From: Scenedesmus sp. PABB004
Lineage: Eukaryota
Length of the DNA stretch: 64,000 nt
NCBI GenBank assembly: GCA_014905635.1
Contig: CM026548.1
Location: forward strand, 1,302,001-1,366,000
Reading direction: 5' to 3'
The notes under the pieces are model-generated. The model made no database searches, was not told where the DNA came from, and saw only the letters and a list, made by a program, of their open reading frames with translations. The translations under genes and the position numbers were made by a program. This document shows positions 1,736 through 61,454 of this stretch, one piece after another. Position 1 is the stretch's first letter. Each line of letters begins with the position of its first letter.

Positions 1736-1744
1736 CGCGCCGCC

Positions 1745-3701
1745 ATGCGCACCCGGCGCGCCGCGCAGCGCGAGGCCGCCCAGGGTGCGTGGCTGGGAGG
1801 GGCGTGCGTGGCAGTGTCGGGCCTGCCTGAGGCGGTGGCCCGCGGCAGGCAGGCAGCCCCCGCAGGCCCACACGCCCGGCGCGCGCCCCACGCCGCCGCC
1901 CGCTGCTGCGCCGCCCGCCAGGCGCGGTGGTGGCTGCGGCGGTGGCTGCGGCCGCGACCCTGCACGACGCCTGGTCGCTTCTGCTGGCGCACCCGGCGGT
2001 GTGCGAGGACGTGGGCGTGGTGGCCAAGCTGCTCGCGACCAGCCGCGCCACGCGCGCCGCGGGTGCGGGCGTGCGGCTGGCGCGAGCGCGGCGGCGGCGC
2101 GGCAGGCGGCAGCTGCCGGCGTGGGTGCTGACTCGCGGTGCTTGGCGCGGCCAGCGCGCTCAGTCGCTGCCGCTGACGTGCCCGCCGCCGTTGCCGCCGC
2201 CGCATCGCGTGCAGTCGACACGCAGTGCTGGGGCCTGCGCATTGGGTGGCACCACGCCAGGGCCGCGTCGTTCGCCGACTGCTGGCTGCCGCGCCACGCG
2301 CACATCCTCGCCGCGCTGGACATCGGGTTCCGCCCAAACACGGCGGCTGTGGCAGCCGCGCTGCGCACGGCGGCGGCGGTGCGGCCCCTGCGGCTGCACG
2401 GGTTCAGCTTACATGATCACGCAGCCCCTGCGGCGGCGCTGCTGCGGGAGCTGCCCGCCAGCCTCACGTCGCTGGGGATTGTGCTGGACGAGGGCAGAAA
2501 CGCCTCGCACCTGCCGCGCCTGGCGGCGGCGCTGTCGCGCCTGACGGCCCTGCGCACGCTGCACCTGAGTGACGAGGCCATGCCCATGGGCAAGGAGGTG
2601 CAGCGCCTGCTGCCGGCGCTGGCGGGCCACCGCCAGCTCACATCGCTGTATGTCGACACCCAGGACGGCCTGGGCGCCCTGCCGGCGAGCCTGGTGGAGC
2701 TGGAGTTGGCCGACGGCTTTGCTCACAAGACCCCTGACCCCAAGTTCGACCTGCACCACCTCACAGCGCTGACCAGACTCACCTACATCGCGGGTGTGGG
2801 CGACGCGCTGCCGCCCAGCCTGGAGGCGCTGGAGGTGGTGGCGATCATGGACGTGGGGCCCCTGCTGGCGCTCAGCCGGCTGCGCGAGCTGCGCCTGCCT
2901 TATGCCCGCGACGTGCCTGCGCTCGAGCTGGGCCGGCTCACGGCCCTGGCGCGCCTCAGCAGCGTGGCTCTGGACTACACACAGACGTGGTACGAAGGCG
3001 CGCTCGATATCAGCGAGGCACTGCTCGCGGCGGCGCGGGTGTGGCCGCGGCTGCCGCTGGTGGGCCTTAGCGCCCCCCTGGTGAGCGCCCTGCTGCCGCA
3101 CCTGTTGCAGCTGCGCGGCCTCACCATGCTCGAGCTCCTGGGCACTGCAGAGGAGGGGGAGCTGCCGAGCGCGGCCGAGCTGGCTGCGGCGCTCGGCCAG
3201 CTGACGGCGCTGCGCACGCTCAACTTGCGCGGCATCCTCGTGCCGCCCCTCGCCCAGGCGGCGGCATCGCTGGCGCCCGTGACGGCGGCGCTGTCGCGGC
3301 TGCCCAGCCTGGACAGCTTCGGGCTCTTTGGCAGCCCTGGCGTGTTTGACGTGGCGGCCGCCGAGGCGTTTGCGCCGCCGGCGACCACCAAGCTTTGCTT
3401 CGAGTGCTGCCGCATCGACGACGCCGCGCTGTGCGCTGTGGCGAACCGACTGCCCGGCCTGATGTCCCTGAGTGTTTACGACGATGACAGCGCGCTGACC
3501 GGGGCCACCCTGCCGGTGCTGTGCGAGCGGCTGACGCAGCTCACGTGCCTGACCCTCCCGGCGCCGGCAGTCACGCTGGCCAACGCGCACTGCCTGAGCG
3601 CCCTCGTGCGGCTCAGGGAGCTGTACGTGTACAAGCTGGCATGGGACGAGCTCCAGGCGGTGCGCCAGGCGGTGCGAAAGGGCTTCGTGGAGGTGCATTG
3701 A
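1745..3701 (+). CDS. LRR (RNI-like) protein with degenerate F-box-like N-terminal motif, copy 1; exons ~1745-1784, 1922-2062, 2215-3701
   Basis: MRTRRAAQREAAQG|AVVAAA...TLHDAWSLLLAHPAVCEDVGVVAKLLATSRATRAA|VDTQCWGL... followed by many LxxLxxLxxLxL repeats. The phase-compatible GT-AG introns are conserved in all three copies. Confidence 0.8.
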
Positions 3702-3978
3702 GCCCTGACAGCGGCCGGCGTGTGCCTGCCGGGGCGGCGCGGCGCTCCTGGGCGGCGGCTTTGGCGCGCCCGGCGGCGGCGCTGCCGCCGCCAGGCGGCC
3801 GGGGCAGCTCGGCGCTCGGCTGGGTGGCTGCGCGGGGCATGTGCGTGGCTGCGGCGGCGAGCTGAGTTGAGATGGGCGCGGCACCGTGCGTGCTGCGCGC
3901 GCGTGCGGGGGCGGCGGGCGCGCGCTGGCCGGCTGGTCGCGGGCTGCGGCGGGTGCCGGCGGCGCGCGTGCCCCTGCT

Positions 3979-4381
3979 GCAACGCCCCTCTGCTGCTGCG
4001 CTGGCCGCCGCTGCCGCTCCCGCCCCCGCACCGCCGCCGCGCACGGCTTGTTGCTGCTCCGGCGCGCGAGGCAGGCGGGCGGGCGGGCGCGGGGCCCGCG
4101 GTTCACGCAGCGCCCGGTGGCGTCGCGCACAGCCTCCGCCCGGCCGCCCGTGGGCCTCCCCTGCCACATACGCACACGACCTCCAGGCCCGGACGGCAGC
4201 CGCAGCACGCAGCCGCGCGAGCGCACCGCCGAGCCCGCCGCTGCTGCTGTGCCGCTCGCCGCGATCGAACGCACATCGCCCCGCGGCGCCCGTGTGGGAC
4301 CCGCGACGCCACCGACCCTCACAGCCAGCCGCCGCGCCGACCCAGCGCCCTCAGGCGCCGTGGCAGCGCCGGCAGCAGCGC
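3979..4381 (+). repeat. ~400-bp direct repeat, 3' flank of LRR cassette copy 1; directly upstream of ATG16
   Basis: Colinear similarity to 1351-1735, seen directly in the sequence. Confidence 0.9.
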
Positions 4382-4457
4382 GCTGCTGCCAGCTGCGCCT
4401 CGCCCGCGGCAGCGCCGCCCGGCCAGCCGGCAGCGCCTTGGGTGAGCGCCTGCTGAC

Positions 4458-7400
4458 ATGATGGCGGTGGAGTGCCCGCAGGAGCTCCAGGCGGACGTGT
4501 GGCGCCAGGTGGCCGCGCTGCGGGCGGCGCAGACAGCGCCGTACGAAACGCTCGTCGCCGACTACATGGCCTGCCTGCAGCGCAACAGGGAGCTGGAGGT
4601 GCGAGCCCGGGGCGCGCGCGGCCGCCTCACGGCCCAGCGGGCGGCCGCGCCCGCGGCGCGCCCGCGCGGCGCCCGTGCGGCGCGCGCCTGGCAGCTGACG
4701 CGCGAGCTGCTGCCGGCCGGGCGGCCGGCCGGCCGGCGTGCCGCCAGGTGCGGGTCGGCGTGCTCGACAAGGAGGTGGCCGAGCTGCGCGACGAGGCCGG
4801 CTCGCTGCAGCACCGCCTCGCGGCGTTTGACGAGGCCGCGGTGCGCGACTTTGCGGCAAAGGTGCGCCCGCCGCTGCGCCCGCCCGCGCCCGCTGCTGGC
4901 GCTGCTGGTGCCGCTGCCGCTGCCGCGGCGGCCGTCGCTGCCCGGGCGAGCCCCGTCCCTCTGTGCGCCGCCCGCCGCCGCCGCGCCAGGCCGAGAGCTA
5001 CCGGGCAGACCTGGCGCGTGCCAACAGCGAGCTCACCAGCCTGCTGCGCGACAAGTCCAAGGCGCGCTCGCCCGGCCAGCGCCCCGCCGCGCGCGCCGGC
5101 TGGGCGCGCCGCGTGCGCCGCCGGCCACACAAGCGCGCGCCCGCGCCCGCGCCGCCGCCGCCAGGCGTACGAGGAGCTGCTGGCCCTGCAGCGCACCGTG
5201 GCCGCGCTCAGCGCGTCGCAGGCCGAGGCCGCCGAGGCCGCGGAGCTGGCCGAGGGCGAGATCGGCGGGCTGAAGGCCCGCCTCGCCGAGCTGAGCCAGG
5301 AGCTCGACGCCGAGCGCCAGGCGCGCCAGCTGGCGGCGGCCGAGGCTGAGGCGCGGTGCGCCGCGGCGGCCCGGCGCGCGCGCGGGGCGGCTCCCGCCGC
5401 GCGCGCGGCGGCCGCGCGGCGCGGCGCGCTGACGCCGCCGCCGCCTCTGCCGCCGCCGCCGCGCCCGCGCCCGCAGCGTGGCGGCCAAGGTCGCGGCCGA
5501 GGCCGAGTCGGAGCGGCTGCGCGCCGACAACCTGCAGATGGAGGGGCAGCTGCGGCAGATGGTGGCCAAGGAGGTGCGGCGGGCCGCCGCTCGCGCGGCG
5601 CGGCGGAGCGCGGGGCGCGCGCCGGGCGGCCGCGGGGCGCGGCCACGCGCCCGGCCGCGCCGCCGCCGCTGCGTTGGGTGCTCGCAGGCGGAGCGGCTGG
5701 AGCAGATCAGTCGCATGCATGAGGAGCTGATGGTCAACACCAAGCGGCAGCAGGTGGGCGGTGGTGGCGGCGGCGGCAGCAGCCCACGGCGCGCGGCCGT
5801 GGCCACGCGGCGCCGCGGCCGACACCGGCCCGCGCGCCGCGCGCCGCAGACTGAGGCGTCCGCGGCGTCGCAGCTGATGGGCCTGCTGACACGCCGCCGC
5901 GGCAGCGCCACCAGCAGCAGCAGCGCCGCGGCGTCCGCCGCGCCCAGCCCGGGCGGCGGCGCGTCGGCGCCGGCGAGCCGCCGCGGCAGCGCGGCCGACG
6001 CGGCCGGCAGCGCCGCGGCGGCGGCGGCCGCGGCGGAGGAGCACGAGCATGCGCAGGAGATGTGGTCGAGCCTCAAGCAGCGCATGGGCCTGCCCGAGCT
6101 GCCGGTGGGCCCGATCAAGGAACGGGAGCTGCCACAGCAGCCGGCCAAGGCCGTGCAGGTCTGCGCAGCGCTTCGCCCGGCGGCGGCACGGCGCCCGCGC
6201 CGCCGCGCGCGCGCGGGCCGCAGCCCGACGGGCCGGCCTGCGCCGCACCACCCGCGCGCCGCCCCGCGCCCCGCGCAGGCGCACGCGGGCGGCGTGTGCA
6301 GCCTGGCCTTCCAGCCGCACGGCCAGCTCGTCGCGAGCTGCGGCATGGACAAGACGGTGCAGAGCTGGTCGCTCACGCACGCGGCGCACGTCAGCACCTA
6401 CCAGGCGCGGCGAGCGGCGCGGCGTCGCGTCGGCGCGCCCCGCCCCGCCCGGCCGCGAAGGCGCGGGGCCCACCCAGGCTCCCCGCCCGCGCCTGGCCGC
6501 GCCGCGCAGGGCATGCAGGGGAGCGTGAACGACGTGGCCTTCAACGCCGACGGCCGGCGGCTGCTGGGCGCGGGCAGCGACAAGCGCTTGCTCGTGTGGA
6601 ACACGCACGGCGGCCAGGCGCGCGCGGCGGCCGAGGCGGGGCGCGCGCGCGCCCGGGCCGGGGGCTCGCCGCGACCCCCGCGCGCGCCGCGCCGCCGCGG
6701 CCGCAGGTCGTGCACACGCTGACGGGGCACGCCAACGCCGTGAGCTGCGTCGCGGCGTCGCCGCTGGACGAGGGCTTGGCCGTGTCGGCGGGCGAGGACC
6801 GCTGCCTCAAGGCGCGCCGCAGGGTTCAGGCCGCGCGGCGCAGGGTTTAGCCCGCGCGTGCCGCGCCAAGCCACGCCACGCCACGAGCACGCCGGGCGCC
6901 GCGGCGCCGCGCTCGACCGTCTGACGCCGCCGCCGCCGCCGCAGGTGTGGGACCTCGTGCGCGGCTACGCGAGCCGCAGCATCCCCTGCACCAAGATGCC
7001 GACCGCGCTCACGCTCAGCGCCGACGGCAGCACCATCATCACAGGTGGGGCGAGCGCGGCGCCTGCGCTCAGCGCGCGGTGCCCGCGCGCTGACGGCCGC
7101 GCCGCGCCCGCCCCACGCACGCAACCCGCGGCCAGGGCACCTCGACGGCACGCTGTGCCTCTGGGACCTGCGGCAGAGCCGCGCGGGCAGCCAGCCGCTG
7201 GCCGAGGTGCGGCGGCGGCAGCGGCGCTGCGCCGCTCGTGCCGCCGAGCGGGACAGCTGCCGAGGCGCGGCCGGCTCCGCCGCCGCCGCCGCCGCCGCCG
7301 CTGCTGCGCAGGTGCGCGACCACGCGCAGGCGGTGCTGTGCGTCACGCCCACGCCAAACGCGGACTGGCTGCTGACCGCGTCGAAGGACAACCAGCTGCG

Positions 7401-7915
7401 GCTGTGGGACTTCCGCCAGCTCGGCACCGTCCAGGCGCGTCGCCGCGCTCCCGCTCGCTCGCTCGCTGCCGCCCCGGGCGCGCCGCGCCGCGTCTGGCCG
7501 CCGCTTGCGCCGCCGGCGCGCGGCGGCGCTGCGACCCCTGCCGCGGCGGCGGCGGCGCTGCAGGTGCTCAAGGCGCCGCACTTCAGCATCGGCCACATCG
7601 GCAGCATGGGGCGCAGCAAGTGCCACGCAGAAATGAGCGCCGACGGGCGCTGGGTCGCGGCGGGCGCGGCGGACGGCCAGGTGCGCGCGCGGCGCGCGTC
7701 GCGCGGCGCGAGGTCGCGGGGCCCCGTGGCGAGCGCGCGCCGCCCGGCCGCAGGTGTTTGTGTGGGAGCTGCGTGGCGCGCCCGGCGCGGCGGCGGGCGC
7801 GCGCGCGCTGCGGCACCACAAGGACGCGGCGGTCGCGGCGGGCTGGAGCGCCGACTGCACGGAGCTCGTGACCGCCGACAAGGCCGGCGGCATCGCCTTC
7901 TGGCGCCTGCAGTGA
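4458..7915 (+). CDS. ATG16: Autophagy protein ATG16 (coiled coil plus C-terminal WD40 repeats), multi-exon
   Basis: N-terminal helix (WRQVAALRAAQTAPYETLVADY), long coiled coil, then WD40 repeats (AHAGGVCSLAF...ASCGMDKTVQSW; LTGHANAVSCV...SAGEDRCLK|VWD; GHLDGTLCLWDLR; LLTASKDNQLRLWD; MSADGRWVAAGAADGQ|VFVWE). Stop TGA at 7913-7915. Confidence 0.8.
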
Positions 7916-8352: not shown

Positions 8353-11860
<3,508 letters not shown>

Positions 11861-32068: not shown

Positions 32069-32131
32069 ACCGGGGCTGCGACGCCCTGCCACCCGCCCCG
32101 CACGCCGCCGCCACACCCAGACAGCACAGAG

Positions 32132-35718: not shown

Positions 35719-35792
35719 GCCAACGGGCAGCTGCCGCGCCCGCGCGGGGCCCGGCCTGGTCACGGCGCCGGCGGCAGCAGCGAAAGCAGCAG

Positions 35793-36172
35793 CGGCGCTG
35801 CCGCGGCGCCTGAGGGCGCTGGGCCGGCGCGCCGGCTGCCTGGGTGGGTCTGCGGTGTCGCAGGGCTCACACGGGGGCCACGGGGCGATGCGCTGGATCG
35901 CGGTGAGCGGCGCAGCAGCGGCGGGCTCGGCGGCGCGCTCCCGCGGCTGCGTGCTGCGGCTGCCGTCCGGGCCTGCAGGCGGTGTGTGTGTGCGTGTGGA
36001 GGGGAGGCCCACGGGCGGCCGGGTGGAGGCTGTGCGCCGCCGGGCGCCGCGTGAACCGCGGGCCCCGCGCCCGCCCGCCTGCCGCGCACGCCCGAGCAGC
36101 AGCAAGCCGAGCGCGGCGGCGGTGCGGCGGTGGGAGCGGCGGCGGCCAGCGCAGCGGCAGAGGGGCGTTGCA
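35793..36172 (-). repeat. ~400-bp direct repeat, 3' flank of LRR cassette copy 2; directly upstream of FAD synthetase
   Basis: Reverse complement matches 1351-1735 and 3979-4381. Confidence 0.9.
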
Positions 36173-36457
36173 GCAGGCGCGCGCGCCGCCGGCACCCGCC
36201 GCAGCCCGCGACCAGCCGGCCAGCGCGCGCCCGCCGCCCTCGCACGGGCGCGCAGCACGCAAGCCGCCGCCGCCGCGCCCGACTCAACTCAACTCGCCGC
36301 CGCAGCCCAAACACGTGCCTCGTGCAGCCATCCAACCGAGCGCCGAGCTGCCGCAGCCGCCTGGCGGCAGCGCCACCACCAGCCGGGCCAAAGCCACCGG
36401 CCCGCAGCTGCAGTGCTGGCCCGGCAGCGCACTCCGGCCAGCGGCAGCTGGCAGGGG

Positions 36458-38476
36458 TCAATACACCACCACGCTGCACCCAATGCGCACCGCCTCGCAC
36501 ACCGCGTTGAGCTTCGCCTCTGAGGGCTCGTACACCTCCAGCTCCCTGAGCCGCACCAGGGCGCTCAGGCAGTGCGCGTTGGCCAGCGTGACCGCCGACC
36601 CCGGGAGGGCCAGGCACGTGAGCTGCGTCAGCCGCTCGCACAGCACCGGCAGGGCGGCGCCGGTCAGCGCGCTGTCACCGTCGTGGACATCCAGGACCAT
36701 CAGGCCGGGCAGGCGGTGCGCCAGAGCACACAGCGCGGCGTCGTCGATGCGGCAGTGCATAAATAAAAGACTAGTGAGCGCGGGCGGCGCAAGCGCCTCG
36801 GCGGCCGCCACGTCAAACACGCCAGGGTTCCAGGAGAGCGCAAAGCGGCACAGGCTGGGCAGCCGCGACAGCGCCGCCGTCACAGGCGCCAGCGACGCCG
36901 CCGGCTGGGGCGCGCCGCCCGCAGCGAGGGGCGGCGGCGCGAGGTGGATGCCGAGCAATTCAAACTGACGCAGCGCCGTCAGCTGGCCGAGCACTGCGCC
37001 CAGCTCGGCCGTGCTCGGCAGCCCTCCCTCCACTGCAGTGCCCAGGAGCTCGAGCCTGGTGAGGCCGCGCAGCTGCGACAGGTGCGGCAGCATGGGACGC
37101 GCCAGCTGGACGCCGCGCAGGCACGCCAGCGGCAGCAGCGGCCACACCGGTGCCACCGCGAGCAGTGCCTCGTCGGTGCCCACAAGCTCATCGCGTGAGT
37201 TGCCCCGCCCGTACTCTAGCTCCAAGCTGCTGAGGCGCGCCAGGGCCGTGAGCCGGCCCAGCTCGTGCGCGGGCACCCGGCGGGCGTGCGGCAGGCGCAG
37301 CTCGCGCAGCCGGGTGAGCGCCAGCAGGGGCTCTGTGTTGTTGACACACTTCACGTCCAGCTCCTCCAGGTTGGGCGGCAGCGCGTCGCCCACGCCAGCG
37401 ATGTAGGTGAGTCCGGTCAGCGCCGTGAGGTGGCGCAGGTCGACCGCGGTGTCGGAGGGCCCGTAACCAGCGCCATCGTACGAACGCAGCTCCACCAGGC
37501 TCGCCGGCAGGGCGCCCAGGCCGTCCTGGGTGTTGACAACCAGCCGCGTCAGCTGCCTGAGGCCCGCCAGCGCCGGCAGCAGCCGGCGCACTTCCTTGCC
37601 GTAGGTGTCGTAGGTGTCGTCGGTGTCGTCGGTGTAGTCATCGAGCGCCAGCGAGCGCAGGGCCGTCAGGCGTGAGAGCGCCGCCGCCAGCCGCCGCAGG
37701 TGCGAGGCGCCGGTGCCCTTGCGCACCCCAAGCCCCAGGAACGTGAGGCGGCTGGCGGGCAGCTCCTGCAGCAGCGCCGCCGCAGGGCCCGCATGGCCAC
37801 CTGACCTGAACTCCAGCAGCTGCAGGGGCCGCGCCGCAGCCGCCGTGCGCAGCGCGGCTGCCACAGCCGCCGCGTCCGCGTTCCGGACGGCCAGCGCGGC
37901 GAGGATGTGCGCGTGACGCGGCAGCCAGCAGTCCACAAACGGCTCTGCCTCGGGCTCAGCGCTCTCGAACTCAACGCACCCAATGCGCAGGCCCCAGCAC
38001 TGCGTGTCCACTGTGCGCGAGGCGGCGGCGGAGACGTCAGCGGCGGGGACGTCAGCGGCAGCTGAGGGCGTGCTTTGCGAGCCAAGTGCGGCGAGGCAGC
38101 GCCCCGAGCCGGCAGCTGCCACGCGCCACGCGCCGCCGCGCGCCGCCGCGCCCGCTGGCGCCGCAGCCCGCACCCGCGGCGCGCGTGGCGCGGCTGGTCG
38201 CGAGCAGCTTGGCCACCACGCCCAGGTCTTCGCACACCGCCGGGTGCGCCAGCAGCAGCGGCCAGGCGTCGTGCAGGGTCGCGGCCGCAGCCTCCGCCGC
38301 GCCTGGCGGGCGGCGCAGCAGCGGGCGGCGTGCGGCGCGCGCCGGGCGTGGGCCTGCGGGGGCGGCCTGCCTGCCGCGGGGGGCCACCGCCCCAGGCGGC
38401 CTGACACCGCCACGCACGCCCCTCCCAGCCACGCACCCTGGGCGGCCTCGCGCTGCGCGGCGTGCCGGGTGCGCAT
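36458..38476 (-). CDS. F-box-like/LRR protein, copy 2 (3 exons, apparently intact)
   Basis: MRTRHAAQREAAQG|...TLHDAWPLLLAHPAVCEDLGVVAKLLATSRATRAA|VDTQCWGL...LRELEVYEPSEAKLNAVCEAVRIGCSVVVY*; same exon structure as copy 1. Confidence 0.8.
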   Translation of the reverse strand: MRTRHAAQREAAQGAWLGGACVAVSGRLGRWPPAAGRPPPQAHARRAPHAARCCAARQARRRLRPRPCTTPGRCCWRTRRCAKTWAWWPSCSRPAAPRAPRVRAAAPAGAAARGGAWRVAAAGSGRCLAALGSQSTPSAAADVPAADVSAAASRTVDTQCWGLRIGCVEFESAEPEAEPFVDCWLPRHAHILAALAVRNADAAAVAAALRTAAAARPLQLLEFRSGGHAGPAAALLQELPASRLTFLGLGVRKGTGASHLRRLAAALSRLTALRSLALDDYTDDTDDTYDTYGKEVRRLLPALAGLRQLTRLVVNTQDGLGALPASLVELRSYDGAGYGPSDTAVDLRHLTALTGLTYIAGVGDALPPNLEELDVKCVNNTEPLLALTRLRELRLPHARRVPAHELGRLTALARLSSLELEYGRGNSRDELVGTDEALLAVAPVWPLLPLACLRGVQLARPMLPHLSQLRGLTRLELLGTAVEGGLPSTAELGAVLGQLTALRQFELLGIHLAPPPLAAGGAPQPAASLAPVTAALSRLPSLCRFALSWNPGVFDVAAAEALAPPALTSLLFMHCRIDDAALCALAHRLPGLMVLDVHDGDSALTGAALPVLCERLTQLTCLALPGSAVTLANAHCLSALVRLRELEVYEPSEAKLNAVCEAVRIGCSVVVY

Positions 38477-38479
38477 GGC

Positions 38480-38868
38480 GCGCGGGCGCTGCTGTCGGCG
38501 CTGCCGCGGCGCCTGAGGGCGGTGGGCCGGCGCGACGGCTGCCTGGGCGGGTCTGCGGTGTCTCAGGGCCCACACGGGGGCCACGGGGCGATGCGCGCAG
38601 GATCGCGGTGAACGGCGCAGCAGCGGCGGCGGGCTCGGGCGCGCTCGCGCGGCTGCGTGCTGCGACTGCCGTCCGGGCCTGCAGGCGGTGTGCGTGCGTG
38701 GCAGGGGAGGCCCACGGGGCGGCCGGGTGGCTGTGCGCGCCGCCGCCGGCCGCAGCGTGAACCGCGGGGGGCCCTCGCCCGCCTGCCGCGCGCCGGTGCA
38801 GCAGCGAGCCGAGCGCGCGGCGGCGGCTGCTGCACGGTGGCGACGGCGGCGGCCGGTGCAGCAGCAGA
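38480..38868 (-). repeat. ~400-bp direct repeat, 5' flank of LRR cassette copy 2
   Basis: Reverse complement matches the other flank copies. Confidence 0.88.
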
Positions 38869-40967: not shown

Positions 40968-41524
40968 ATGGAGGCGCTGCCGCCCTGGCTGGCGCCGCTG
41001 GCGACGGCGCCGACGGCCTGGGAGCCGGGGCCGGGGCGGCCGCGCGTGGCGCTGAACGTGGCGCTCGACGGCTGCATCGTGCCGACGCTGTCGGGCGGCG
41101 CGCGCGTGGACTACGCGCACGTGGTGGTCCTGGACGGCCTGGTGGACGAGCCCACGCGCGCCGCGCTGCTCGCCGGCCTCACCGCGCCGGGCTGGGCGGG
41201 GCCGGCGCCGCCGGCGGCGCGCTGGGAGCGCGCGACCGCCGACGCGGCCGGCGGCGCGCGCGGCTGGGGCCTGCGCGGCGACGCGCTGTCGGCCTTTGCG
41301 GCGGGCGAGCTCGCGGGCGCGGCCAAGCTGGAGGTGCAGTCGCGCCTGGCCAAGCTGTACCCGGAGCTGATCATCGCCCACATGCCCTCGCACGCGATCC
41401 AGGCCGGCGCCGCGGCCGGCGGGCGCGGCGGGCGGCGCGGCAGCCCGCAGGCGGAGCAGCAGCAGCAGGAGCAGGAGCAGCAGCAGCAGCAGGAGCAGCA
41501 GCAGGAGCAGCAGGCAGGGCAGGC

Positions 41525-41583
<59 letters not shown>

Positions 41584-42191
41584 CGCAGCAGCAGCAGGAG
41601 CAGGAGCAGGCGCGGGAGCAGGCGCAGGAGCAGGAGCAGGGGCCGGGGCAGGGAGACGGCGGCGGCGCGCCCGCCGCCGGCGACTGCACGCCGTTCCTGG
41701 CCAACGCGGCGGTGCCGGGCGACGCGTTTGCGTGGCACGTCGACGCCGACCCCGCGGCGCTGCCGGCGCCGAGCCCCTGGGCCGACGCGTTTGGGGCCTA
41801 CCCCAACCGCGAGCCGGGGCGCCCCCGCTTTGTGTCGCTGCTGCTCTACCTCAACGCGGCGTGGCCGCTCGGTCACGACGCCGAGACGCTCTTCCTCGAT
41901 GGCGGCACCGACACGGGCGTCTTCGTGCGCCCAGCGCCCGGCCGGGCGGTGCTGCTCGACCAGGACGTCTGCCACCGGCTGTCGCCGCCGTCGGCGGCCG
42001 CGGCCGCGCCGCGCTACAGCCTCGTGTGGAAGCTCGTGCTGCTGCCGCGCGCCGGCGGCGCGCGCTGCTGCATCGCGCGGCCCGAGTGGGGCCGGCCGAC
42101 GTTCTTCGGCTCCGCGGCGCACGTGCAGCGCGCAGCCGCGGACGCGGCCGCGGCCGCGGGCGCCAAGCGCCGCGCGCCGGAGCCGCCATAG
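40968..42191 (+). CDS. 2OG-Fe(II) oxygenase (prolyl-4-hydroxylase-like fold), intronless, with Gln/Glu insert
   Basis: FAWHVDADP (HxD), FVSLLLYLN, ETLF, VRPAPGRAVLLDQDVCHRL (distal His), PRYSLVWK (RxS). Confidence 0.85.
41455..41640 (+). repeat. Coding CAG/CAGGAG repeat encoding a (QE)n/polyQ tract
   Basis: Visible gcaggagcaggag array, in frame within the oxygenase. Confidence 0.9.
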
Positions 42192-42913: not shown

Positions 42914-45436
42914 ATGGCCGCGCAGCCCGCGGGCCAGATGGTGTCCTCCGCCGCGCGCCTCGCGGTGCGCGCCGCCGCGGCGTCGTCGCTCGGCCTCTCC
43001 CAGGGCATCCGCCTCGCCGACTGCCAGGCGCGCGAGGTGGTGGACGACATCTTCGCGCACGCCCTGAAGAAGCAGACGGGCGTGAGCCTCAAGTACATGC
43101 TCGATTTCGGGTCGAGCCCGATCGAGCGCCAGCTCGTGCTCTCCAGCCAGTTCCTCCACAAGGAGCTGCCCGTGCGCCTCGCGCACCGCGTCGCGGAGCT
43201 CGAAAACCTGCCCTACGGCCTCTCCAGCAAGGGCTCCATCCTCAAGGCGCGCGCGCGCGCGCGCGCGCGACGCGACCTGGGCGGCGGCGGCGGCGGCGGC
43301 GCGGCGGCGCGGCGGCAGCAGCGCGGCGGCGGCGGAGCGGCGGCGGCGAGCGGAGCGGCGGCTGCAACAGCAGGAGCAGAGGCAGAGGCAGCAGCAGCAG
43401 GCAGAGCAGCAGCAGCAGGCAGAGCAGCAGCAGCAGCAGGCGGTCGCTGGCCGCCGCCGGCTGCCCGCGCAGCCCGCCCATGCCCTGCCCGCCTCCACAC
43501 CCACCCACACCCACACCCACACCCACACACCCACACCCACACTCACCCACACATCAACACAACCCCGCCAGGTGCGTGACTGGTACGTGGAGTCGTTCAA
43601 GGAGCTGCGCGGCTTCCCGCTCATCCGCGACGCCTCGGACGAGATCAAGTTCACCGAGCTGCTGCGCCACATCTACCGCCGCCACGCCAACGTCGTCCCC
43701 GTCATGGCAAAGGTGGGCGCGTGGGTGTGAGGGGGGAGGAGCCGGGGCGGGACGGGGACAGTGGCGACGGGAGCGAGGGAGGGAGCGGGCCGGGGCGGCC
43801 GTCGCTTGGCGGCCGCCGCGTCGCCGCGCGTCGCCGCCCCACGCCGCGCCGCCGCCGCCCCGCGCCGCCGCCGCCGCGCGCCGCCGCCCTTGGCAGGGCG
43901 TGGCGGAGCTGAAGCGCGAGCTCAACGAGCGCGCGATGCTGACCGAGATGCCTGAGATCCACCAGTTCCTCGACGGCTTCTACCTCTCACGCATCGGCAT
44001 CCGCATCCTCATCGGTGACCTGCTGCTTTTTTAGCCCTGGCAGCGGCGGCGCGGCGCGGCGCGCGCGCGCGGCGGCGCGCGCGTGTGGTGGGGGGAGGGG
44101 CAGGCAGCGGCGGGCCCCTGCTGCGTGCGCCGACCGCGCCGCCGACCGCGCCGCCGCCGCCGCCGCGGCCGCAGGCCAGCACATCGCGCTGCACGAGCCG
44201 CCCAAGCAGAGCCACATCGGGCTCATCTGCACCAAGTGCTCGCCCTGGCAGGCGCGCGCGCGCGCCCGCGCCCGCGCGGCGCGCGCCCGCGCCCGCCCGC
44301 GCCGCGCTCCCTGCCTCCCCCCTCCCCCTTCCCCCCTTCCTCCCCCGCCGACGCCCGCCTGCCGCCGCGCCGCCGCCGCCCCCTCCTTCCGCCCCGCGCA
44401 GGTCGCGCAGGATGCGATCAACGACGCGCGCAGCATCTGCCTGCGCGAGTACGGCGCGTCGCCCGACGTTTCCATCTATGGCGACCCCGGCTTTGCCTTC
44501 CCCTACGTCCCCAGCCACCTGCACCACATGGTCTTTGAGCTCGTCAAGAACTCGCTCCGCGCCGTGCAGGACCGCTTCGAGGACGGCGACGACGAGCCGC
44601 CGCCGATCAGGCGCGCGCCGCGCCGCGCCGCGCGCCGCGCGCCGCGCCGCGCGCCGCGCCGGCGCGCGGCGCCCGGCGTCGCACGCCCGGCGCCCGCGCC
44701 CGCGCTCACGCGCTGCTGCCGCACCGCCGCGCCGCGCCGCGCTGCCGCGCAGGCTGGTGGTGGCGGAGGGCGGGGAGGACGTGACCATCAAGGCGCGGCG
44801 CGGCGCGGCGCGGCGGGGCTGCGACGGCGGCAGAGCAGCGGGGGCCCCCTTGCCCCTGCCCCGCCCGCTCCCGGCCCGCGCTCCGCCGGCCCCCCGCCCG
44901 ACCCAGCCCTGCTCACCCACCCCCGCGCCGCCGGTCGCTGGTCGCCGGTCGCAGGTGAGCGACGAGGGCGGCGGCATCCCGCGCAGCGGCCTCGCGCGCA
45001 TCTGGACCTACCTCTACTCCACCGCCAAGCAGCGCGTCGCGGTGGAGGAGCTGCAGGCGCGGCGCGCGGCGCGGTGCAGCGCGGCGCCCTCTCCCCCGCG
45101 CGCGCGCCCCTCTCCCTCGCCCGCGCGCCCCTCTCCCTCGCCCGCGCGCCCGCCTCGCACGCGCGCGCCCCCTCGCGCGCCCCGCCCCGCCCCGGCCCGC
45201 GTCTCAAAACCCCCGCCGCCGCCGCCGCCGCCGCCGCGCCGCGCATCGCCCCCGCCGCGCAGGACGACACCGACGGCCCCGCCGTGCTCGCGGGCTACGG
45301 CTACGGCCTGCCGGTGAGCCGCCTGTACGCGCGCTACTTTGGCGGCGACCTGCAGATCATCTCCATGGAGGGCTACGGCACCGACGCCTACCTGCACCTG
45401 AACCGCCTCGGCAACGTGCAGGAGCCGCTGCCCTAA
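42914..45436 (+). CDS. PDK: Mitochondrial pyruvate dehydrogenase kinase (8 exons)
   Basis: [140 protein letters not shown]. Confidence 0.97.
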
Positions 45437-46127: not shown

Positions 46128-46525
46128 TCAGAGCTCCGCGTCGTCGTAGTCGTCCGGCGCCAGCTCCTCCGCCGTCTTGCCGCCGCGCGCGCGCAGCAGC
46201 GCGATCGTGCCCTCGTTGCCCGACCGCAGCGCCGCGTCCAGCGGCGTCTGCCCGTTGCCGAGCTCGTTCACCGGCACCTGGGCAGCGCGGCGCGGCGAGG
46301 CGCGGTGGCGGCGGCCGGCGTCGGGGCGCGCGCCCGCGCGGACGCGCGGCCGCCCGCCCCCGTGCGCGGCGCGCCGCCGTGCGCACCTTGCCCTGCTCCA
46401 GCAGCACGCGCACGGTCTCGGTGTGCCGCGGCTCGCGGCCCCAGCACGCGCGGTGCACCGGCGCGTAGCCGTCCTGCGAGCGCCGCGCGCCGCGGCGCGT
46501 CAGCCCTGCCGCCGCGCGCTGCTGT

Positions 46526-46581
<56 letters not shown>

Positions 46582-47057
46582 GCGCCTGGTGCCGCTCGCG
46601 CGGGTCCAGCCCCGCCGCGATGAGCAGCGCCGCCGCCTCGGCGCGCCCCTGGAAGCCCGCGCCGTGCAGCGGCGTGTAACCGTCCTGCTCGCCGAGCGAC
46701 AAGTCCAGCGCGGCGCGGTGCTCGCTGAGCAGCAGCCTGCGGCGCGGCGGCCGCGCTCGGGTGCGGCGCGCGCGGCGCGCGGCCGGGAGCCGGCGACCCT
46801 CCCCCCGCTCACCGCACGACGTCCGTGCTGCCGGAGAGCGTGGCGGCCATGATCGGCGTCTGCCCGCCGCCGCCGCGGGCGTTGAGGTCGGCGCCGTCCG
46901 CGATCGCGTCGGCCGCCGCGGCCGCGTCGTTGGCGCGCGCGGCCGCCTCGAGCCGCGCTGTCGCGTCAGCGGCGGCCGCTGCCGCTGCCGGGGCGGCCGG
47001 TGACAGCGCCGCCGCCGCCACCAGCAGCAAGACCAGCGCCGCCGGCCGCCGCCGCAT
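46128..47057 (-). CDS. Ankyrin-repeat protein with signal peptide and C-terminal DAEL (4 exons)
   Basis: MRRRPAALVLLLVAAAALS; GQTPIMAA, GYTPLHGA, GYAPVHRA, GQTPLDAA; ends PDDYDDAEL*. Confidence 0.8.
46525..46580. repeat. Intronic (GCC)n microsatellite
   Basis: Visible run. Confidence 0.9.
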
Positions 47058-48485: not shown

Positions 48486-48527
<42 letters not shown>

Positions 48528-53147: not shown

Positions 53148-53235
<88 letters not shown>

Positions 53236-53621
53236 GCGGGCCGCGGGCGGCGCCGGGGAGGGGCGGGGAGGCGGGCGGCCGCGTCCCGCGCGCGCGCCGA
53301 CGCGCCGCCGCGCTCGGGCGGCGCCCGCCGCAGGCGTGTCGGGCGACGCGCGCAAGGGCGGCGCGGAGTCGCTGCTCGCCGGCCTGGGGTGAGCGCGCGC
53401 CGGCGCGCGCGCGGCCGACCGCCGCGCCGCCTCCCCGCCGCGCTCGCGCGCGCGCCGCGCCCCTCACGCGCGCCCCCCGCCGCGACAGCTGCACGCACCC
53501 GGACTCCACGCGCCGCGCGGCGCGGCTGGAGGAGGAGCTTGCGTTCATGGCCGCGCACCGCAGCGACGCGCGGCTCGGCCTCGAGTCGGTGCACAGCCGG
53601 GTGGACTACTTCTCCGTCTGA
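50925..53621 (+). CDS. OMA1: Peptidase M48, OMA1-like zinc metalloprotease
   Basis: VPFTRRRHII; WSVSVVREPIMNAFVFPG|GYIVVYTG|LL; LAMVMGHEVAHALARH (HExxH); LPFSRRAETEADLIGL; THPDS. Confidence 0.88.
53148..53235. repeat. (GCG)n microsatellite, probably intronic, in the OMA1-like gene
   Basis: ~29 GCG units starting right after a gt donor-like site. Confidence 0.9.
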
Positions 53622-56755: not shown

Positions 56756-57190
56756 TTCGCTGCCTCCTCCCTAACGCCCGCGCGCGCTGCGGATCCGGCG
56801 AGCGCTGCTGGGGCGCTCCGGGATCGAAAGCAGCGTCCACGAAGAGCGCTTGACCCCCAGGCGCCCCAGGGAGCGTTGGGAGGGCCCGGCCGCTGGCGCG
56901 CGCGCGGCAACAAAGCTCGTCCGCTGGCGAGAACGGGCCGCTGCGCGCGCGGCGGTGTGGCTCGATCGGGCAGAGGGCACAACACTGCGCCCCGCATGAC
57001 GCGGCGCGGGGCGTCGCCGCCGAGCTGGCGCCACAACCGCGCGCCCGCCGCCGCGCCCCACATGCTCCCCCGCGGCCACCGTCTCCCGGTCCAACGCACG
57101 CCACCCGGCCGGCCGCACGCTCCCCCGCAGCACACACGCACGCACGCGCGCGCGCGCGCCCACGCCAGCGGCTCGCCCCGCGCCCGCGCC

Positions 57191-57871
57191 ATGCAGGCGC
57201 CGCGCCTGGCGGCGGCGCCGCCGCGCCGGGCGGGCCTGACGGCCCTGGCGGCCGCGACCCCGCCGCCGTGCGGGCCGCGCACCGCCGCCGGCCGGCGCCG
57301 CGCGGCCGGCAGCAGCAGCGGCGCCGGCGGCGCGCGCCCGCGGCCGCGCTCGCGCCGCCGCGCGCTGCCCGCCGAGCGCGCCGGCGGCGCGGCGCCCGGC
57401 CGGCGCGGCGGCCCGCCCGGCGCCGCCGATGTGCAGGGCTGGCGCAGCGCCGTGCCAGGGTGCGCGCCGCGCCCCGCGCGCGTCGCCCGCTCCTCGCCGC
57501 CCGCCACGCGCGCGCTGACGCGGCCCGGCGCCTGCCGCCGCGCGCGCGCCCGCGCAGCGACAGCGGGTGGGACCCCCTGAAGCTGCGCGCGCGCGACGCC
57601 AAGACCTTCAACCGCTTCCGGTGCGCCGCCGCGGGCGCGCGCCGCGGCCGCCGCCCACGCCCGGCGCTCCGCTGCACGGCGCGCGCACGCCGCCCGCACG
57701 CGTCGCCGCCGCGCGCCCACGCCGCCCGCACGCGCCGCCGCCGGGCAGGGAGGTGGAGGTCATCCACGCGCGCTGGGCAATGCTGGGCGTGATGGCGCTG
57801 CTGCTCGGCGACGCGCCGGGCACGCCCGTCTCGCCGCAGACGGTGCGCGCCCGCGCCCGCGCCCGCGCCCT

Positions 57872-57917
<46 letters not shown>

Positions 57918-58749
57918 TTTCCGTGCGCGAGCCCACCCCACCGCGCCGCGCCGCGCGACGCCGCGCCGCGCCGCGCTGGCGCAGCTGAGCGTCGGCGTGC
58001 TCGCGCCGTGGGGCCTCACCGCGCTGCTGGGCGTCGCGTTCATTGAGAGCTCCCGCCTCGCCGCGCTGTGGGGCGAGGACGACGTCGACGCGCGCGCATA
58101 CCCGGGTGCGCCGTGTGCCCGAGCGGCCGCCTGCGCCGCGCCTGCACGGCGCCCCCGCCGCCGCGCCTGCGCCGAGCCCGTGCTCCGTGCCTGCGCCGAG
58201 CCCCCGCCGCCGCGCCGTGCCTGCTGAGCCCCGCCGCCGCGCCGCAACGCCGCCGCGCAGGCCAGCGCTTCGACCCGCTCGGCCTCGCCCGCCGCGCGCG
58301 CCGCGGCCGCCGCGCCGGCAGCGCCGCGGGCGAGGGCGACGCGCCGCCGCCGCTCGCGGTGTTTTCGAGCTGGCTCGGCGGCGCACCGGGCTGGCTCGCG
58401 GGCGGGTGGTGGTGGGAGCGGCGGGAGATGACGGAGGGCGAGCTCCTTGACATGAAGAGCCGGGAGCTGCGCAACGGCCGGCTCGCGATGTGCGCGCGGC
58501 GCGCCCGCCGCGCGCGCCGGCCTGCGCCGAGGCCCCGCCGCCGCGCCGGCCCGCGCCGGCCCGCGACTGCCCGCGCCGGCCGGCCCGGGTCCGCGCGCGC
58601 CGAGCCGCCCGCGCCGCGCGCGCAGGGTGTCGTTCCTGGGCTGCTGCGCGGCGTCGGCGCTGACCGGCAAGGGCCCCATCACGCTGCTGGTGCAGCACAT
58701 CACCGACCCCGCGCACAACACGATCGTGCAGAGCCTCGGCCAGCAGTGA
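57191..58749 (+). CDS. Divergent light-harvesting chlorophyll a/b-binding (LHC) family protein (6 exons)
   Basis: PG|DSGWDPLKL; FR|EVEVIHARWAMLG; FIESSR; YPG|QRFDPLGL; KSRELRNGRLAM|VSFLG; TGKGPITLLVQHITDPAHNTI. Confidence 0.9.
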
Positions 58750-59059
58750 GGCGGCGCGGCAGCGCAGCGCGGCGCGGCGCGTCGGCGGCGAGCGGGGCGG
58801 CGGGCGGGCCGCCGCCCCGCGGCGAGAGGGGAGGCTTTGGGAGCGCGCGTGGAGAGCGGGGGCGCGGGGATCGGGGGCGAGGGGCAGGCGATGCGCTGCG
58901 ACACGTGCATGCGTGACCATCTGTGTGCTCTGCGTGCGTGCGGCGTGTGTATTCACTTCTCTGTACAACACCGTGGGGGCTCAAACGCCTCGGGCGGCCG
59001 GCTGCGAGTTGAGCGCGCGTCGACCGAAGTTGTGCGAAGCGCCTCTGGGGCGGCAGGTC

Positions 59060-59478
59060 GGCGGCGGCGCGCGCGCCTGCTGCAATGTCCCTATGCTGCG
59101 CTGGCCGCCGCCTCTCCTGCCGCCGCACCGCCGCCGCGCTCGGCTTGTCGCTGCACCGGCGCACGGCAGGCGGGCGGGCGCGGGGCCCGCGGTTCGCGCT
59201 GCGGCCGGCGGCAGCGCACAGCCTCCACCCGGGCCGCCCGTGGGCCTCCCCTGCCACGCACGCACACCGCCTGCAGGCCCGGACGGCAGTCGCAGCACGC
59301 AGCCGCACGAGCGCGCCCGAGCCCGCCGCCGCTGCTGCGCCGCTCACCGCGATTAAACGCATCGCCCCGTGGCGCCCGTGTGGTCCCTGCGACACCGCAG
59401 ACCCGCCCAGGCAGCCGCCGCGCCGGCCCAGCGCCCGCGCGCGCCACGGCATCGCCGACAGCAGCGCCCGCGCGCCGC
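59060..59478 (+). repeat. ~400-bp repeat, 5' flank of LRR cassette copy 3
   Basis: Colinear with the other flank copies. Confidence 0.9.
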
Positions 59479-59479
59479 C

Positions 59480-61454
59480 ATGCGCACCGGGGGCGCCGCG
59501 CAGCGCGAGGCCGCCCAGGGTGCGGCTGGGAGGGCGTGCGTGGCAGCGGCGTCAGTGCCTGGGCCCGCGGCAGGCAGGCAGCCCCCGCAGGCCCACTCGC
59601 CCGTCGCGCGCCCCACCCCGCCCGCTGCTGCTGCGCCGCCGCCCGGCAGGCGCGGCGGTGGCTGCGGCGGGGACCCTGCACGATGCCTGGTCGCTGCTGC
59701 TGGCGCACCCGGCGGTGTGCCAGGACGTGGGCGTGGTGGCCAAGCTGCTCGCGACCAGCCGCGCCACGCGCGACGCGGGTGCGAGCGGCGGCGCCAGCGG
59801 GCGCGGCGGCGGCGGCGGCGCGGCAGCTGTCAGCGCGGGCGCTGACTCGCGGTGCTTGGCGCGGCCAGCGCGCTTGACGGCTGCCCCTGACGTCCCCGCC
59901 GCCGCCTTTGCCGCCACCGCCGTTGCTGCCGCCGCGTCGCGCTCAGTCGACACGCAGTGCTGGGGGCTGCGCGTTGATGGCGAGTGCGCCGACCTCGAGG
60001 CAGAGCCGTTCACCGACTGCTGGCTACCGCGCCACGCGCACATCCTCGCCGCGCTGGACGTCTGGTACCACCAGACGTGGCGGCTGTGGCAGCCGCGCTG
60101 CGCACGGCGGCGACCGCGCGGCCCCTGCGGCTGCAGGAGTTTGCCTGCCGCGCCCAGCTGGGCCCTGCGGCGGCGCTGCTGCGGGAGCTGCCCGCCAGCC
60201 GCCTCACGTCCCTGGGGCTTTACCTGCACGCGGGCTGGGCTGTCTCGCACCTGCCGCGCCTGGCGGCGGCGCTGTCGCGCCTGACGGCCCTGCGCTCGCT
60301 GAATGTGTTTCTGGAGGACGAGGGCGCCGGGGCGCACCGCCTGCTGCCGGCGCTGGCGGGCCACCGCCAGCTCACGCGGCTGGCGCTCAACACCCAGAAC
60401 GGCCTGAGCGCCCTGCCGGCGAGCCTGGTGCACCTGGCAGCGATTGGCAACGTGCGGGACCCGCTGCCATACGCCGGCCGGGACCTGCGCCACCTCACGG
60501 CGCTGACCGGACTCACCTACACCGCTGGCGCGGGCGACGCGCTGCCGCCCAACCTGGAGGAGCCTGGAGGCGCTGGACGTGAAGTGTATCGACAACACGG
60601 AGCCCCTGCTGGCGCTCAGCCGGCTGCGCGAGCTGCGCCTGCCGCACGCCCGCCGGGTGTCTGCGCTCGAGCTGGGCCGCCTCACGGCCCTGGCGCGCCT
60701 CAGCAGCGTGGAGCTGGACTACACGCATGTGGACAGGGCCACGCTGGTCAACACTGACGAGGAGCTGCTCGCGGCGGCGCCGGTGTGGCCGCGGCTGCCG
60801 CTGGTGTGCCTGCGCGGCGTCCGGTTGGCGCGTCCCATGCTGCCGCACCTGTCGCAGCTGCGCGGCCTCACCATGCTCAAGCTCCTGGGCGCTGCAGAGG
60901 AGGGAGGGCTGCCGAGCGCGGCCGAGCTTGGCGCGGCGCTCGGCCAGCTGACGGCGCTGCGCGAGCTTGATTTGCTTGGCATCCGCCTCGCGCCGCCGCC
61001 CCTCGCTGCGGACGGCGCGCCCCAGCCGGCGGCGTCGCTGGCGCTGGTGACGGCGGCGCTGTCGCGGCTGCCCAGCCTGTGCCGCTTTGCGCTCTTTGGC
61101 AGCCCTGGCGTGTTTGAGGCGTTTGCGCCGCCGGCGACCACTTGTCTTTGCTTCGAGGAATGCAGCATCGACGACGCCGCGCTGTATGCTGTGGCGCAGC
61201 GCCTGACCGGCCTGATGTCCCTGCATATTGTGGACGAGGACAGCCCGCTGACCGGTGCCGCCCTGCCGGTGCTGTGCGAGCGCCTGACGCAGCTCACGTG
61301 CCTGACCCTCCCGGCGCCGGCAGTCACACTGGCCAACGCGCACTGCCTGAGCGCCCTGGTGCGGCTCAGGCAGCTTTGGGGGTGCGTGCTGCCAGAGGCG
61401 GAGCTCCAGGCGGTGCGCCAGGCGGTGTGCAGCGGGTGCTGCATGGTTGCGTGA
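59480..61454 (+). pseudogene. F-box-like/LRR gene copy 3 with two frameshifts (~60070 and ~60563)
   Basis: Same 3-exon layout. The homologous peptide is split over three ORF-track entries (59085-60284, 59984-60757, 60579-61454). Confidence 0.75.

Follow-up and report, generated by a model that had tools for sequence, protein, structure and literature searches.

Why should three paralogous leucine-rich repeat (LRR) genes be nearly invariant in their framework and differ radically at the positions where LRR proteins bind their targets? This question is raised by a window of 64 kb (the whole stretch of DNA analysed), which is ~80% G+C with spliced, alga-like genes. A sequence-only reading had described a conserved scaffold with variable LRR segments and proposed a diversifying recognition repertoire.

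Self-BLASTN of the window reveals three paralogous units of ~3 kb, all within 60 kb. Unit A (1351..4399, plus strand; limits also from a MAFFT identity profile) matches unit B (35764..38868, minus strand) with 81.7% identity over 3178 nt (1362-4399 / 38864-35764) and unit C (59050..61828, plus strand; limits also from the identity profile and alignment) with 80.7% over 2827 nt (1351-4042 / 59082-61828). TBLASTN of A and B on the 64-kb window returned no locus beyond these three, the next matches having E values of at least 0.43.

Each unit encodes a three-exon protein composed of a short N-terminal helical motif and ~18 irregular LRRs, and GT-AG splice sites are kept in all three. In A, on the plus strand, exon 1 (1745..1784) begins with the start codon at 1745 and is followed by GT, as placed by a splice search that reproduces the inner part of public model P0093. 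Exon 2 (1922..2062) carries the conserved helical, putatively F-box-like motif, with a three-way identity of 0.91. Exon 3 (2215..3701, stop included) is intact and holds the ~18 LRRs and 19 variable patches, as defined by translation, alignment, splice search, LRR phasing and AlphaFold. The exons of B, on the minus strand, are exon 1 (38437..38476) and exon 2 with the N-terminal motif (38174..38302), both mapped from A and supported by GT-AG sites and an open frame, and exon 3 with the LRR domain (36458..38010, stop included), which is intact by translation, alignment and open frame. A and B comprise 555 and 573 residues, respectively, and their frames stay open over 10 whole-codon length differences.

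In C, on the plus strand, exons 1 (59480..59519) and 2 (59650..59778) were mapped from A with a splice-site check. Two lesions disrupt exon 3 (59947..61454), a deletion of 1 nt near 60071 and a tandem duplication of 10 nt at 60551-60560; translation in one frame meets four stops, and both places are skipped by public model P0003. With two frameshifts, C is probably a pseudogene. Public protein collections yielded models of A and C alone from this genome, and no separate model of B. At these loci the public gene models run together with neighbouring genes and should be corrected.

The sequence-only reading ran from the first base of A exon 3 (2215) to the last base of the C stop codon (61454), and every peptide that it quoted is visible in the translations and the three-way alignment. 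Its reading of the third copy is obtained only with two frame changes, at the deletion and the duplication. The near-identical flanks that it described are found in some windows only (93-98%). Overall, three-way identity averaged over windows of 30 nt, gaps being scored as mismatches, is 0.65-0.78 in non-coding DNA and 0.78 in exon 3.

The alignment has 520 codon columns, of which 215 are variable and 63 are different in every copy. The variable columns form 186 runs, compared with 253.2 ± 11.1 expected (10,000 shuffles, minimum 211). The LxxLxL strand motif is present in tandem, and we placed 18 units on the three-way alignment. The fraction of variable columns in these units is 0.06 at L1, 0.11 at x2, 0.17 at L4 and 0.44 at L6, and rises to 0.72 at x3, 0.83 at x5 and x7, 0.61 at x8 and 0.56-0.72 at positions 9-13. 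Variable residues occur in clusters that follow the phase of the repeat, L1, L4 and L6 being conserved. At the exposed strand positions and in the loop 118 of 198 columns vary, versus 83 of 286 elsewhere (odds ratio 3.6, p = 2e-11).

An AlphaFold2 model built from a 77-sequence alignment (pLDDT 90.8, pTM 0.89) contains 19 strands. Variable residues occupy 56 of 95 strand positions and 55 of the 95 positions in the six residues after each strand, as against 46 of 154 in helices and 33 of 151 elsewhere (odds ratio for strand and post-strand enrichment 4.0, p = 6e-13). The proposal that variation lies at the ligand-binding positions of the LRR solenoid is supported, by the predicted model and by phasing, for exposed strand positions and ascending loops. 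Furthermore, in 74 distant relatives the patch columns also stand out as the most variable (entropy p = 3e-10) and the most gapped (p = 3e-9).

The patches have sharp edges. Within some of them divergence is near the random level for their base composition, with adjoining blocks 95-100% identical. Their G+C content is 0.62-0.67, compared with 0.77 in the scaffold and 0.81-0.84 in non-coding DNA, and their GC3 is 0.83-0.86 versus 0.92-0.93 in the scaffold. The encoded segments are polar and aromatic, enriched in D, E, Y, F, K and N. Since the patches keep both frame and this unusual, A+T-richer composition, they are not free-drifting junk.

The closest pair among A, B and C switches along the unit, non-coding DNA included, and this mosaic ancestry shows that the copies exchange sequence. 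The three site patterns occur equally often (180, 163 and 158 of 501 sites) but in clusters, with 262 switches versus 333.3 ± 10.4 expected. In non-coding DNA alone, 77 switches are found versus 114.6 ± 6.2, and none of 5000 shuffles reaches that value. The high GC3 of the scaffold would be expected from GC-biased conversion.

Two points weigh against conversion. Copy-specific bursts of change could also cluster the odd-one-out pattern inside patches, a weakness from which the non-coding result is free. The conserved blocks between patches measure only ~30-100 nt, so that conversion tracts would need to be very short or to be halted by the diverged patches.

A freshwater metagenome run provides a view beyond this genome. 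Contigs of 80-90% identity stack on the LRR part, and in patch 9 one variant lacks three codons relative to A, B and C, which hints at more diversity in nature. One 231-nt contig spanning two patches is a single base off A, indicating that this two-patch stretch is stable between samples.

To gauge selection, we distinguished exposed sites, set beforehand by LRR phase, from patches, which are by contrast defined by their variability. At exposed sites pairwise maximum-likelihood (ML) omega is 0.84-1.20 and never significantly off 1 (2dlnL at most 0.42), whereas in the rest of the gene it is 0.30-0.43 (2dlnL 11.5-24.4 versus omega = 1). Patches give 0.44-0.91, with the B-C value of 0.44 significantly below 1 (2dlnL 9.3), and the whole exon 0.47-0.60. 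NG86 counting returns 1.0-1.26 over the whole exon and reaches 1.56 in patches; owing to the extreme codon bias, we trust it less than ML with codon frequencies taken into account. The sequence-only reading had named dN/dS at or below 1 at the variable sites as its own refutation, and its proposal of diversifying selection does not pass this check on the ML estimates, at variable or at exposed sites. Such selection is unproven rather than excluded, because three sequences give little power. An omega of ~1 is also expected from a mixture of positively and negatively selected sites.

Silent differences at codons for the same amino acid are more frequent in patches (39 of 182, 21%) than in the scaffold (71 of 857, 8%; odds ratio 3.0, p = 1.8e-6), which is consistent with an older coalescence of the patches. 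Part of this silent divergence may reflect chance amino-acid identities in saturated, hard-to-align segments.

We favour, at a probability of about one half, concerted evolution in which the framework is constrained and the sequence of the exposed face may vary freely; it would involve three dispersed paralogues, of which A and B are intact and C is a pseudogene. Purifying selection would preserve the N-terminal motif, the helices and the framework of buried leucines, and gene conversion in short tracts would repeatedly make these parts alike in the three copies. Exposed strand positions and ascending loops would be unconstrained in exact sequence (omega ~1), needing only to stay in frame and polar or aromatic. 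The exposed patches would have diverged to saturation and dropped out of conversion, and each intact copy would present a different concave surface. The pattern, its structural location, the mosaic ancestry and the omega values are observed, and from them we infer the cause of patch divergence and the biochemical role. As it stands, the locus is a clean, small case of a binding face left unconstrained under concerted evolution, in a genome extremely rich in G+C.

The alternative that fares best, although we consider it unlikely, is true diversifying selection on recognition receptors, immune-like or engaged in another arms race, in which new concave-face residues are favoured and conversions that level the face are removed. 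It would explain why variation falls exactly at canonical ligand-binding positions in patches that retain frame and composition, and why patch dN (0.42-0.78) is ~2-4 times scaffold dS (0.19-0.25), an above-neutral rate if all parts share one history. The NG86 omega above 1 in patches for A-B and A-C and the wider natural diversity hinted at by the metagenome variants also point this way. However, ML omega exceeds 1 in none of nine pairwise class fits with the class's own codon frequencies, the B-C patches are significantly below 1, and silent divergence is raised in the patches as well. The metagenome contig one base from A and a gene model with neither NB-ARC nor TIR domain also argue against it. 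Nor does 'repertoire' describe what is present: the window has three copies, one of them broken, and protein collections add no model beyond A and C. If the exposed face were truly selected to differ, this would be R-gene-like evolution in a unicellular green alga, and the family, which extends to other green algae, would give studies of virus or parasite recognition by algae a place to begin.

What the proteins do can be approached through their family. The profile of the relatives matches LRR proteins in the PDB at 8.6e-21, and Foldseek assigns a probability of 1.00 to many solved LRR domains. Against Pfam LRR_14 (PF23598), B scores 35 bits versus a cut-off of 40 and A has no match, with weak LRR_4 alone; 6 of the 14 scanned proteins exceed the cut-off. 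The window proteins and 88 representative clusters (E <= 0.001) have a common architecture, with the N-terminal motif, a second conserved motif ahead of the repeats, and the LRRs. The likeness to these relatives, among them the green-algal Tetradesmus obliquus protein P0094, spans the whole architecture; the window copies differ in falling below the LRR_14 cut-off and in being only 25-40% identical to the relatives. None of the green-algal relatives has a described function. The best explanation is that A, B and C belong to an uncharacterised green-algal family of cytosolic LRR proteins.

Possibly, the N-terminal helical motif represents a divergent F-box. Judged by ESM features, its nearest neighbours are F-box clusters (0.92 for relative P0008, 0.85 for window exon 2), with few features shared; this is a weak lead. 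F-box profiles (PF00646, PF12937) match none of 14 relatives and none of the three window exon-2 peptides at E <= 10, and the PDB profile search gave no alignment covering the N-terminal region. Among the best Foldseek matches are COI1, D3/MAX2 (TM up to 0.54) and TIR1, all F-box LRR receptors. Their TM of 0.44-0.54 reflects general LRR likeness only, with internalin, Roco, TLR8/9 and NLRC4 scoring similarly. F-box LRR receptors of SCF ubiquitin ligases resemble the algal proteins in placing a short helical motif at the N-terminus, ahead of a long LRR solenoid, and in having the target-binding domain (predicted in the algal copies) as the variable part; a difference is that Pfam recognises no F-box in the algal copies. 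Expanded, fast-evolving F-box adaptor families are reported in plants and nematodes (PMC3719486, PMC8120010). The intact copies probably act as target-recognition subunits, most likely as ubiquitin-ligase adaptors, a role for which these are weak leads.

By analogy, the closest counterpart is a plant R-gene cluster, which shares the clustering, the sequence exchange and the hypervariable strand positions. In contrast to plant NLR clusters, the algal genes number only three, belong to a green alga and have an N-terminal helical motif instead of an NB-ARC or other signalling domain. Pfam finds no NB-ARC or NACHT domain in the LRR exons of A and B, nor is one among the families listed for P0093 (best 25 of 38) and P0003. 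The 555-residue gene model leaves no room for such a domain, and Pfam places no signalling domain (NB-ARC, TIR) in it. For the coffee SH3 cluster of CC-NBS-LRR resistance genes, positive selection is reported as significant (PMC3113787), whereas it is undetected in the algal copies (omega ~1). A bolder version of the selective alternative joins both comparisons: an algal F-box-like LRR family in which selection keeps the concave faces of clustered paralogues different against constant gene conversion. It would be the counterpart of an R-gene cluster in which recognition is coupled to ubiquitin ligation instead of an NB-ARC switch, and its targets might be viral or parasite proteins. We regard this as decidedly doubtful.

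Relaxed constraint on the way to loss is somewhat less probable again. Here a dispensable family decays in all copies and the pattern records the changes that a folded LRR tolerates, as might be read from the broken C, the high whole-exon omega, the lack of a separate public model of B and an exon 3 overall no more conserved than non-coding DNA. Decay is at odds with the 555- and 573-codon frames that A and B retain with their splice sites over 10 in-frame length differences, with a scaffold omega significantly below 1, and with a patch composition far from non-coding equilibrium despite saturation.

Lamprey VLRs also have an invariant LRR framework with hypervariable concave-face residues, a likeness to the algal copies, and their diversity arises by somatic assembly from flanking cassette arrays. 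The algal genes differ in being three germline genes, one matched almost exactly over two patches by a metagenome contig, and TBLASTN found only three full-length copies and no VLR-like donor cassette array in the 64-kb window. Least probable of all is templated replacement of patches, in which micro-conversion anchored on conserved blocks would draw on cassettes or more distant family members located elsewhere in the genome: sharp borders around near-random divergence, demonstrable exchange and the extra metagenome variants would suit it, yet TBLASTN detects no donor in the window and protein collections no further close member from this genome.

The units carry ~400-nt direct repeats at both ends (block R), which raises the idea of an LTR-type mobile element, for which clear terminal TG...CA ends and target-site duplications would be expected. 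In A, alignment places the 5' copy upstream of the gene (1351..1732, plus strand), 84.5% identical to the 3' copy (3979..4381, plus strand; also found by self-BLASTN), which ends before reaching the start codon. In B, the 3' copy (35793..36161, minus strand) is 86.5% identical to 38496-38868 by self-BLASTN and is also seen in the alignment. By eye, the alignment of the six repeat copies shows no clear termini and no duplicated target, and pairwise identity is no guide here, being 83-88% for every repeat pair. Unit C terminates ~60-90 nt into the expected place of its 3' block. At its other end the likeness starts ~20-40 nt ahead of the repeat and there covers sequence found elsewhere in front of the 3' repeat, an arrangement consistent with a former tandem array.

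Three paralogous LRR-gene units of ~3 kb are found in the window by self-BLASTN: unit A at 1351-4399 on the forward strand, unit B at 35764-38868 on the reverse strand and unit C at 59050-61828 on the forward strand. The overall identity among them is 81-83%. TBLASTN with the LRR exons of A and B detected no further copies within the 64-kb window, the next matches having E ≥ 0.43. The neighboring genes are unrelated to the LRR units; they are of the DUF829 and ATG16-like WD40 types around A and of the LHC-like and Kazal/trypsin-like types around C.

The genes of the window are spliced, with GT-AG introns, and one of them encodes a chlorophyll a/b-binding protein; with the high G+C content, this makes an origin from a eukaryote resembling green algae a reasonable interpretation. 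For copy A, splice positions were varied until the translation fitted the inner part of the public model P0093 (2522 aa). Only one canonical GT-AG solution was obtained, encoding 555 aa, with exons at 1745-1784, 1922-2062 and 2215-3701 (forward strand). Positions carried over from A via the alignment place the exons of B at 38476-38437, 38302-38174 and 38010-36458 (reverse strand), with an open frame of 573 aa, and those of C at 59480-59519, 59650-59778 and 59947-61454 (forward strand). GT and AG are preserved at every splice site in all three copies. In exon 3 of C, one nucleotide is deleted near 60071 and 10 nt are duplicated in tandem at 60551-60560; the two changes jointly shift ~160 codons out of frame and produce four stops. 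Because of these lesions, and because the public model P0003 skips both frame-breaking places, copy C is probably a pseudogene, and the local family would then consist of three members, one of them dead. The translation of C in the sequence-only reading involved unstated frame changes. A run of ~20 C at 61493-61513 directly follows the stop codon of C and is absent from A and B.

Both public models are chimeras. P0093 joins, among others, the DUF829 gene, LRR copy A and the ATG16-like coiled-coil/WD40 gene, and in P0003 (1279 aa) the broken copy C is fused with a chlorophyll a/b-binding gene, identified by a Pfam match, and with the Kazal/trypsin-like gene. Protein word searches with A and B found no public model for B.

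In the 520-column codon alignment of A, B and C, 215 columns are variable, and all three copies differ in 63. The variable columns are clustered (186 runs, versus 253.2 ± 11.1 in shuffles), and we refer to runs of variable codons in exon 3, the LRR exon, as patches and to its remaining codons as scaffold. For a phase analysis, 18 LRR units were located on the alignment. The variable fraction is 0.06 at L1, 0.11 at x2, 0.72 at x3, 0.17 at L4, 0.83 at x5, 0.44 at L6, 0.83 at x7, 0.61 at x8 and 0.56-0.72 at positions 9-13, with mostly lower values (0.13-0.53) thereafter. This profile follows the classical LRR pattern, in which buried and exposed strand positions alternate before the ascending loop. 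Exposed strand and loop positions contain 118 variable columns of 198, versus 83 of 286 elsewhere (p = 2e-11).

AlphaFold2, run on exon 3 of A with 77 aligned family members, predicted a confident solenoid with 19 strands (pLDDT 90.8, pTM 0.89); the single-sequence prediction (pLDDT 43.9) was unusable. On the model, variable residues account for 56/95 positions in strands and 55/95 in the six residues after each strand, versus 46/154 in helices and 33/151 in the remainder (p = 6e-13 for the contrast). As LRR strands make up the concave sheet of the solenoid, the predicted structure would locate the variable residues on one face. Run clustering, LRR phase and model agree that the hypervariable strand and loop pattern proposed from the sequence is real, non-random and at the places named there. 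The accompanying proposal of near-identical flanks holds for some windows (93-98%) and fails on average, the mean identity of non-coding parts, with gaps scored as mismatches, being 0.65-0.78, the same as that of exon 3 (0.78).

The closest pair among the three copies changes along the unit. Two-against-one sites are split evenly (180, 163 and 158), and their patterns are clustered, with 262 switches versus 333.3 ± 10.4 in shuffles. The same is observed in non-coding DNA alone (77 versus 114.6 ± 6.2; 0/5000 shuffles), scaffold codons alone (63 versus 76.4 ± 5.0; 37/5000) and patch codons alone (109 versus 129.9 ± 6.4; 3/5000). The longest same-pattern run is 10, and in 2000 shuffles the maximum averaged 6.3 and went up to 13; this test is indecisive by itself, and the switch count is decisive. 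Since every pair is closest somewhere, no single tree fits throughout A, B and C. Such a shifting closest pair is the pattern left by gene conversion or recombination between copies.

Silent differences at codons for the same amino acid are more frequent in patches (39/182) than in the scaffold (71/857; p = 1.8e-6), with the caveat that chance may account for some amino-acid identities in the saturated patches. GC3 is 0.92-0.93 in the scaffold versus 0.83-0.86 in the patches. Both contrasts fit a framework repeatedly homogenized with a G+C bias and an older divergence of the patches. The best-supported mechanism, with roughly even odds, is concerted evolution in which the LRR framework is constrained and its exposed face is free in sequence and constrained in kind.

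Diversifying selection for recognition, in which replacements on the exposed face would themselves be favored, is an unlikely account. The Nei-Gojobori (NG86) omega of the exon is 1.0-1.26; as third positions are ~90% G+C, these values were set aside, and pairwise Goldman-Yang ML with F3x4 codon frequencies was preferred. The ML omega is 0.47-0.60 for the whole exon, 0.27-0.36 for the scaffold (dS 0.19-0.25) and 0.44-0.91 for the variability-defined patches (dS 0.84-1.10). In the patches, no pairwise ML fit exceeds 1 significantly, and that of B-C falls significantly short of it. A second set of site classes was fixed by LRR phase, which avoids choosing sites by their variability. Here, omega is 0.84-1.20 for exposed strand and loop (2dlnL ≤ 0.42 versus omega = 1) and 0.30-0.43 for the remaining positions (2dlnL 11.5-24.4). 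The expected dN/dS above 1 at the variable sites is therefore not shown (ML omega 0.44-0.91 in the patches and 0.84-1.20 at exposed positions), in a test that is weak with three sequences and saturated patches.

The G+C content of the patches is 0.62-0.67; the scaffold reaches 0.77 and the introns and flanks 0.81-0.84. D, E, Y, F, K and N are abundant in the patches. As the saturated patches stay far from the non-coding composition, they are not drifting freely, and the kind of residue must be selected. The 10 length changes between A and B are all whole-codon, and gaps of 1, 2, 4, 8 and 10 nt occur in the non-coding parts of the same alignment. Decay and templated replacement are minor alternatives. 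Replication slippage seems to add to the length variation of the patches. In B, patch 5 (37560-37610) contains a run of near-repeated Asp, Thr and Tyr codons, at a place where A is 7 and C is 11 codons shorter.

The closest known analogue is the plant R-gene cluster, for which one study reports gene conversion together with positive selection at solvent-exposed LRR residues (PMC3113787). In contrast, A, B and C are without an NB-ARC domain, form a group of different size and show no omega above 1 among the three sequences.

A ~400-nt upstream block, block R, recurs at the 3' end of A (1351-1732 and 3979-4381, forward strand) and of B (38496-38868 and 35793-36161, reverse strand). In C, the 5' block is at 59050-59467 (forward strand), the unit ends just inside the 3' block, and the likeness extends slightly upstream of block R. 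These repeats look more like what is left of an earlier tandem array than like an LTR element. An LTR origin is without support from the alignment of the repeat copies, and as the repeat pairs are all 83-88% alike, their identities are uninformative on this question.

An exhaustive HMMER search with B matched 88 representative clusters at E ≤ 0.001. The public model of copy C ranks first; the other relatives, from Logan, JGI and ENA contigs, are 25-40% identical and contain far less G, A, R and P. Protein word searches with B at longer lengths returned only P0093, P0003 and one Tetradesmus obliquus protein, and those with A at near lengths and B at shorter lengths gave no matches. The relatives and the window copies have the same overall architecture, in which an N-terminal helical motif precedes another conserved motif and then the LRRs. 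In the wider family, variability and gaps peak at the columns that hold the patches of the three copies, so the loops are tolerant or specificity-bearing family-wide.

With Pfam at E ≤ 10, LRR_14 was detected in 11 of 14 relatives; in another scan of 14 proteins, 6 passed its cut-off. The Pfam F-box was found in none of the 14 relatives and none of the three exon-2 peptides from the window, and profile matches to PDB sequences are confined to generic LRR regions. By ESM features, the N-terminal motif has F-box clusters as its neighbors (0.92 in the case of a relative and 0.85 in that of exon 2 from the window), with few shared features in either case. Fold comparison places COI1, D3/MAX2 and TIR1 among its top matches (TM 0.44-0.54), together with internalin, Roco, TLR8/9 and NLRC4. 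These predictions are weak leads toward an F-box LRR type. A full-text search found no literature on the algal family, only plant and nematode analogues.

Two public sequencing runs contain small shares of the words of unit A. With contigs aligned at 80% likeness, one of 231 nt from a freshwater metagenome is one base off A across two patches, and many contigs with 80-90% identity stack on the LRR part. In one variant, patch 9 is nine bases shorter than in A, B and C, which hints at more alleles or paralogues in nature. The aligned contigs are evidence of presence and of some additional variants, no more, and their uncovered parts are uninformative. A scan of metagenome contigs with the three-copy alignment gave 117 pattern matches and no relatives.

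The G+C content is 75-83% in every 2-kb bin of the window, which is extreme for an intron-bearing eukaryote, and the three LRR units form local dips (0.745-0.76). Self-BLAST also detects short repeats, tandem or of low complexity, at 9224-9416, at 41439-41652 and at 43280-43362 / 46468-46618 / 53148-53256, which have no relation to the LRR units.
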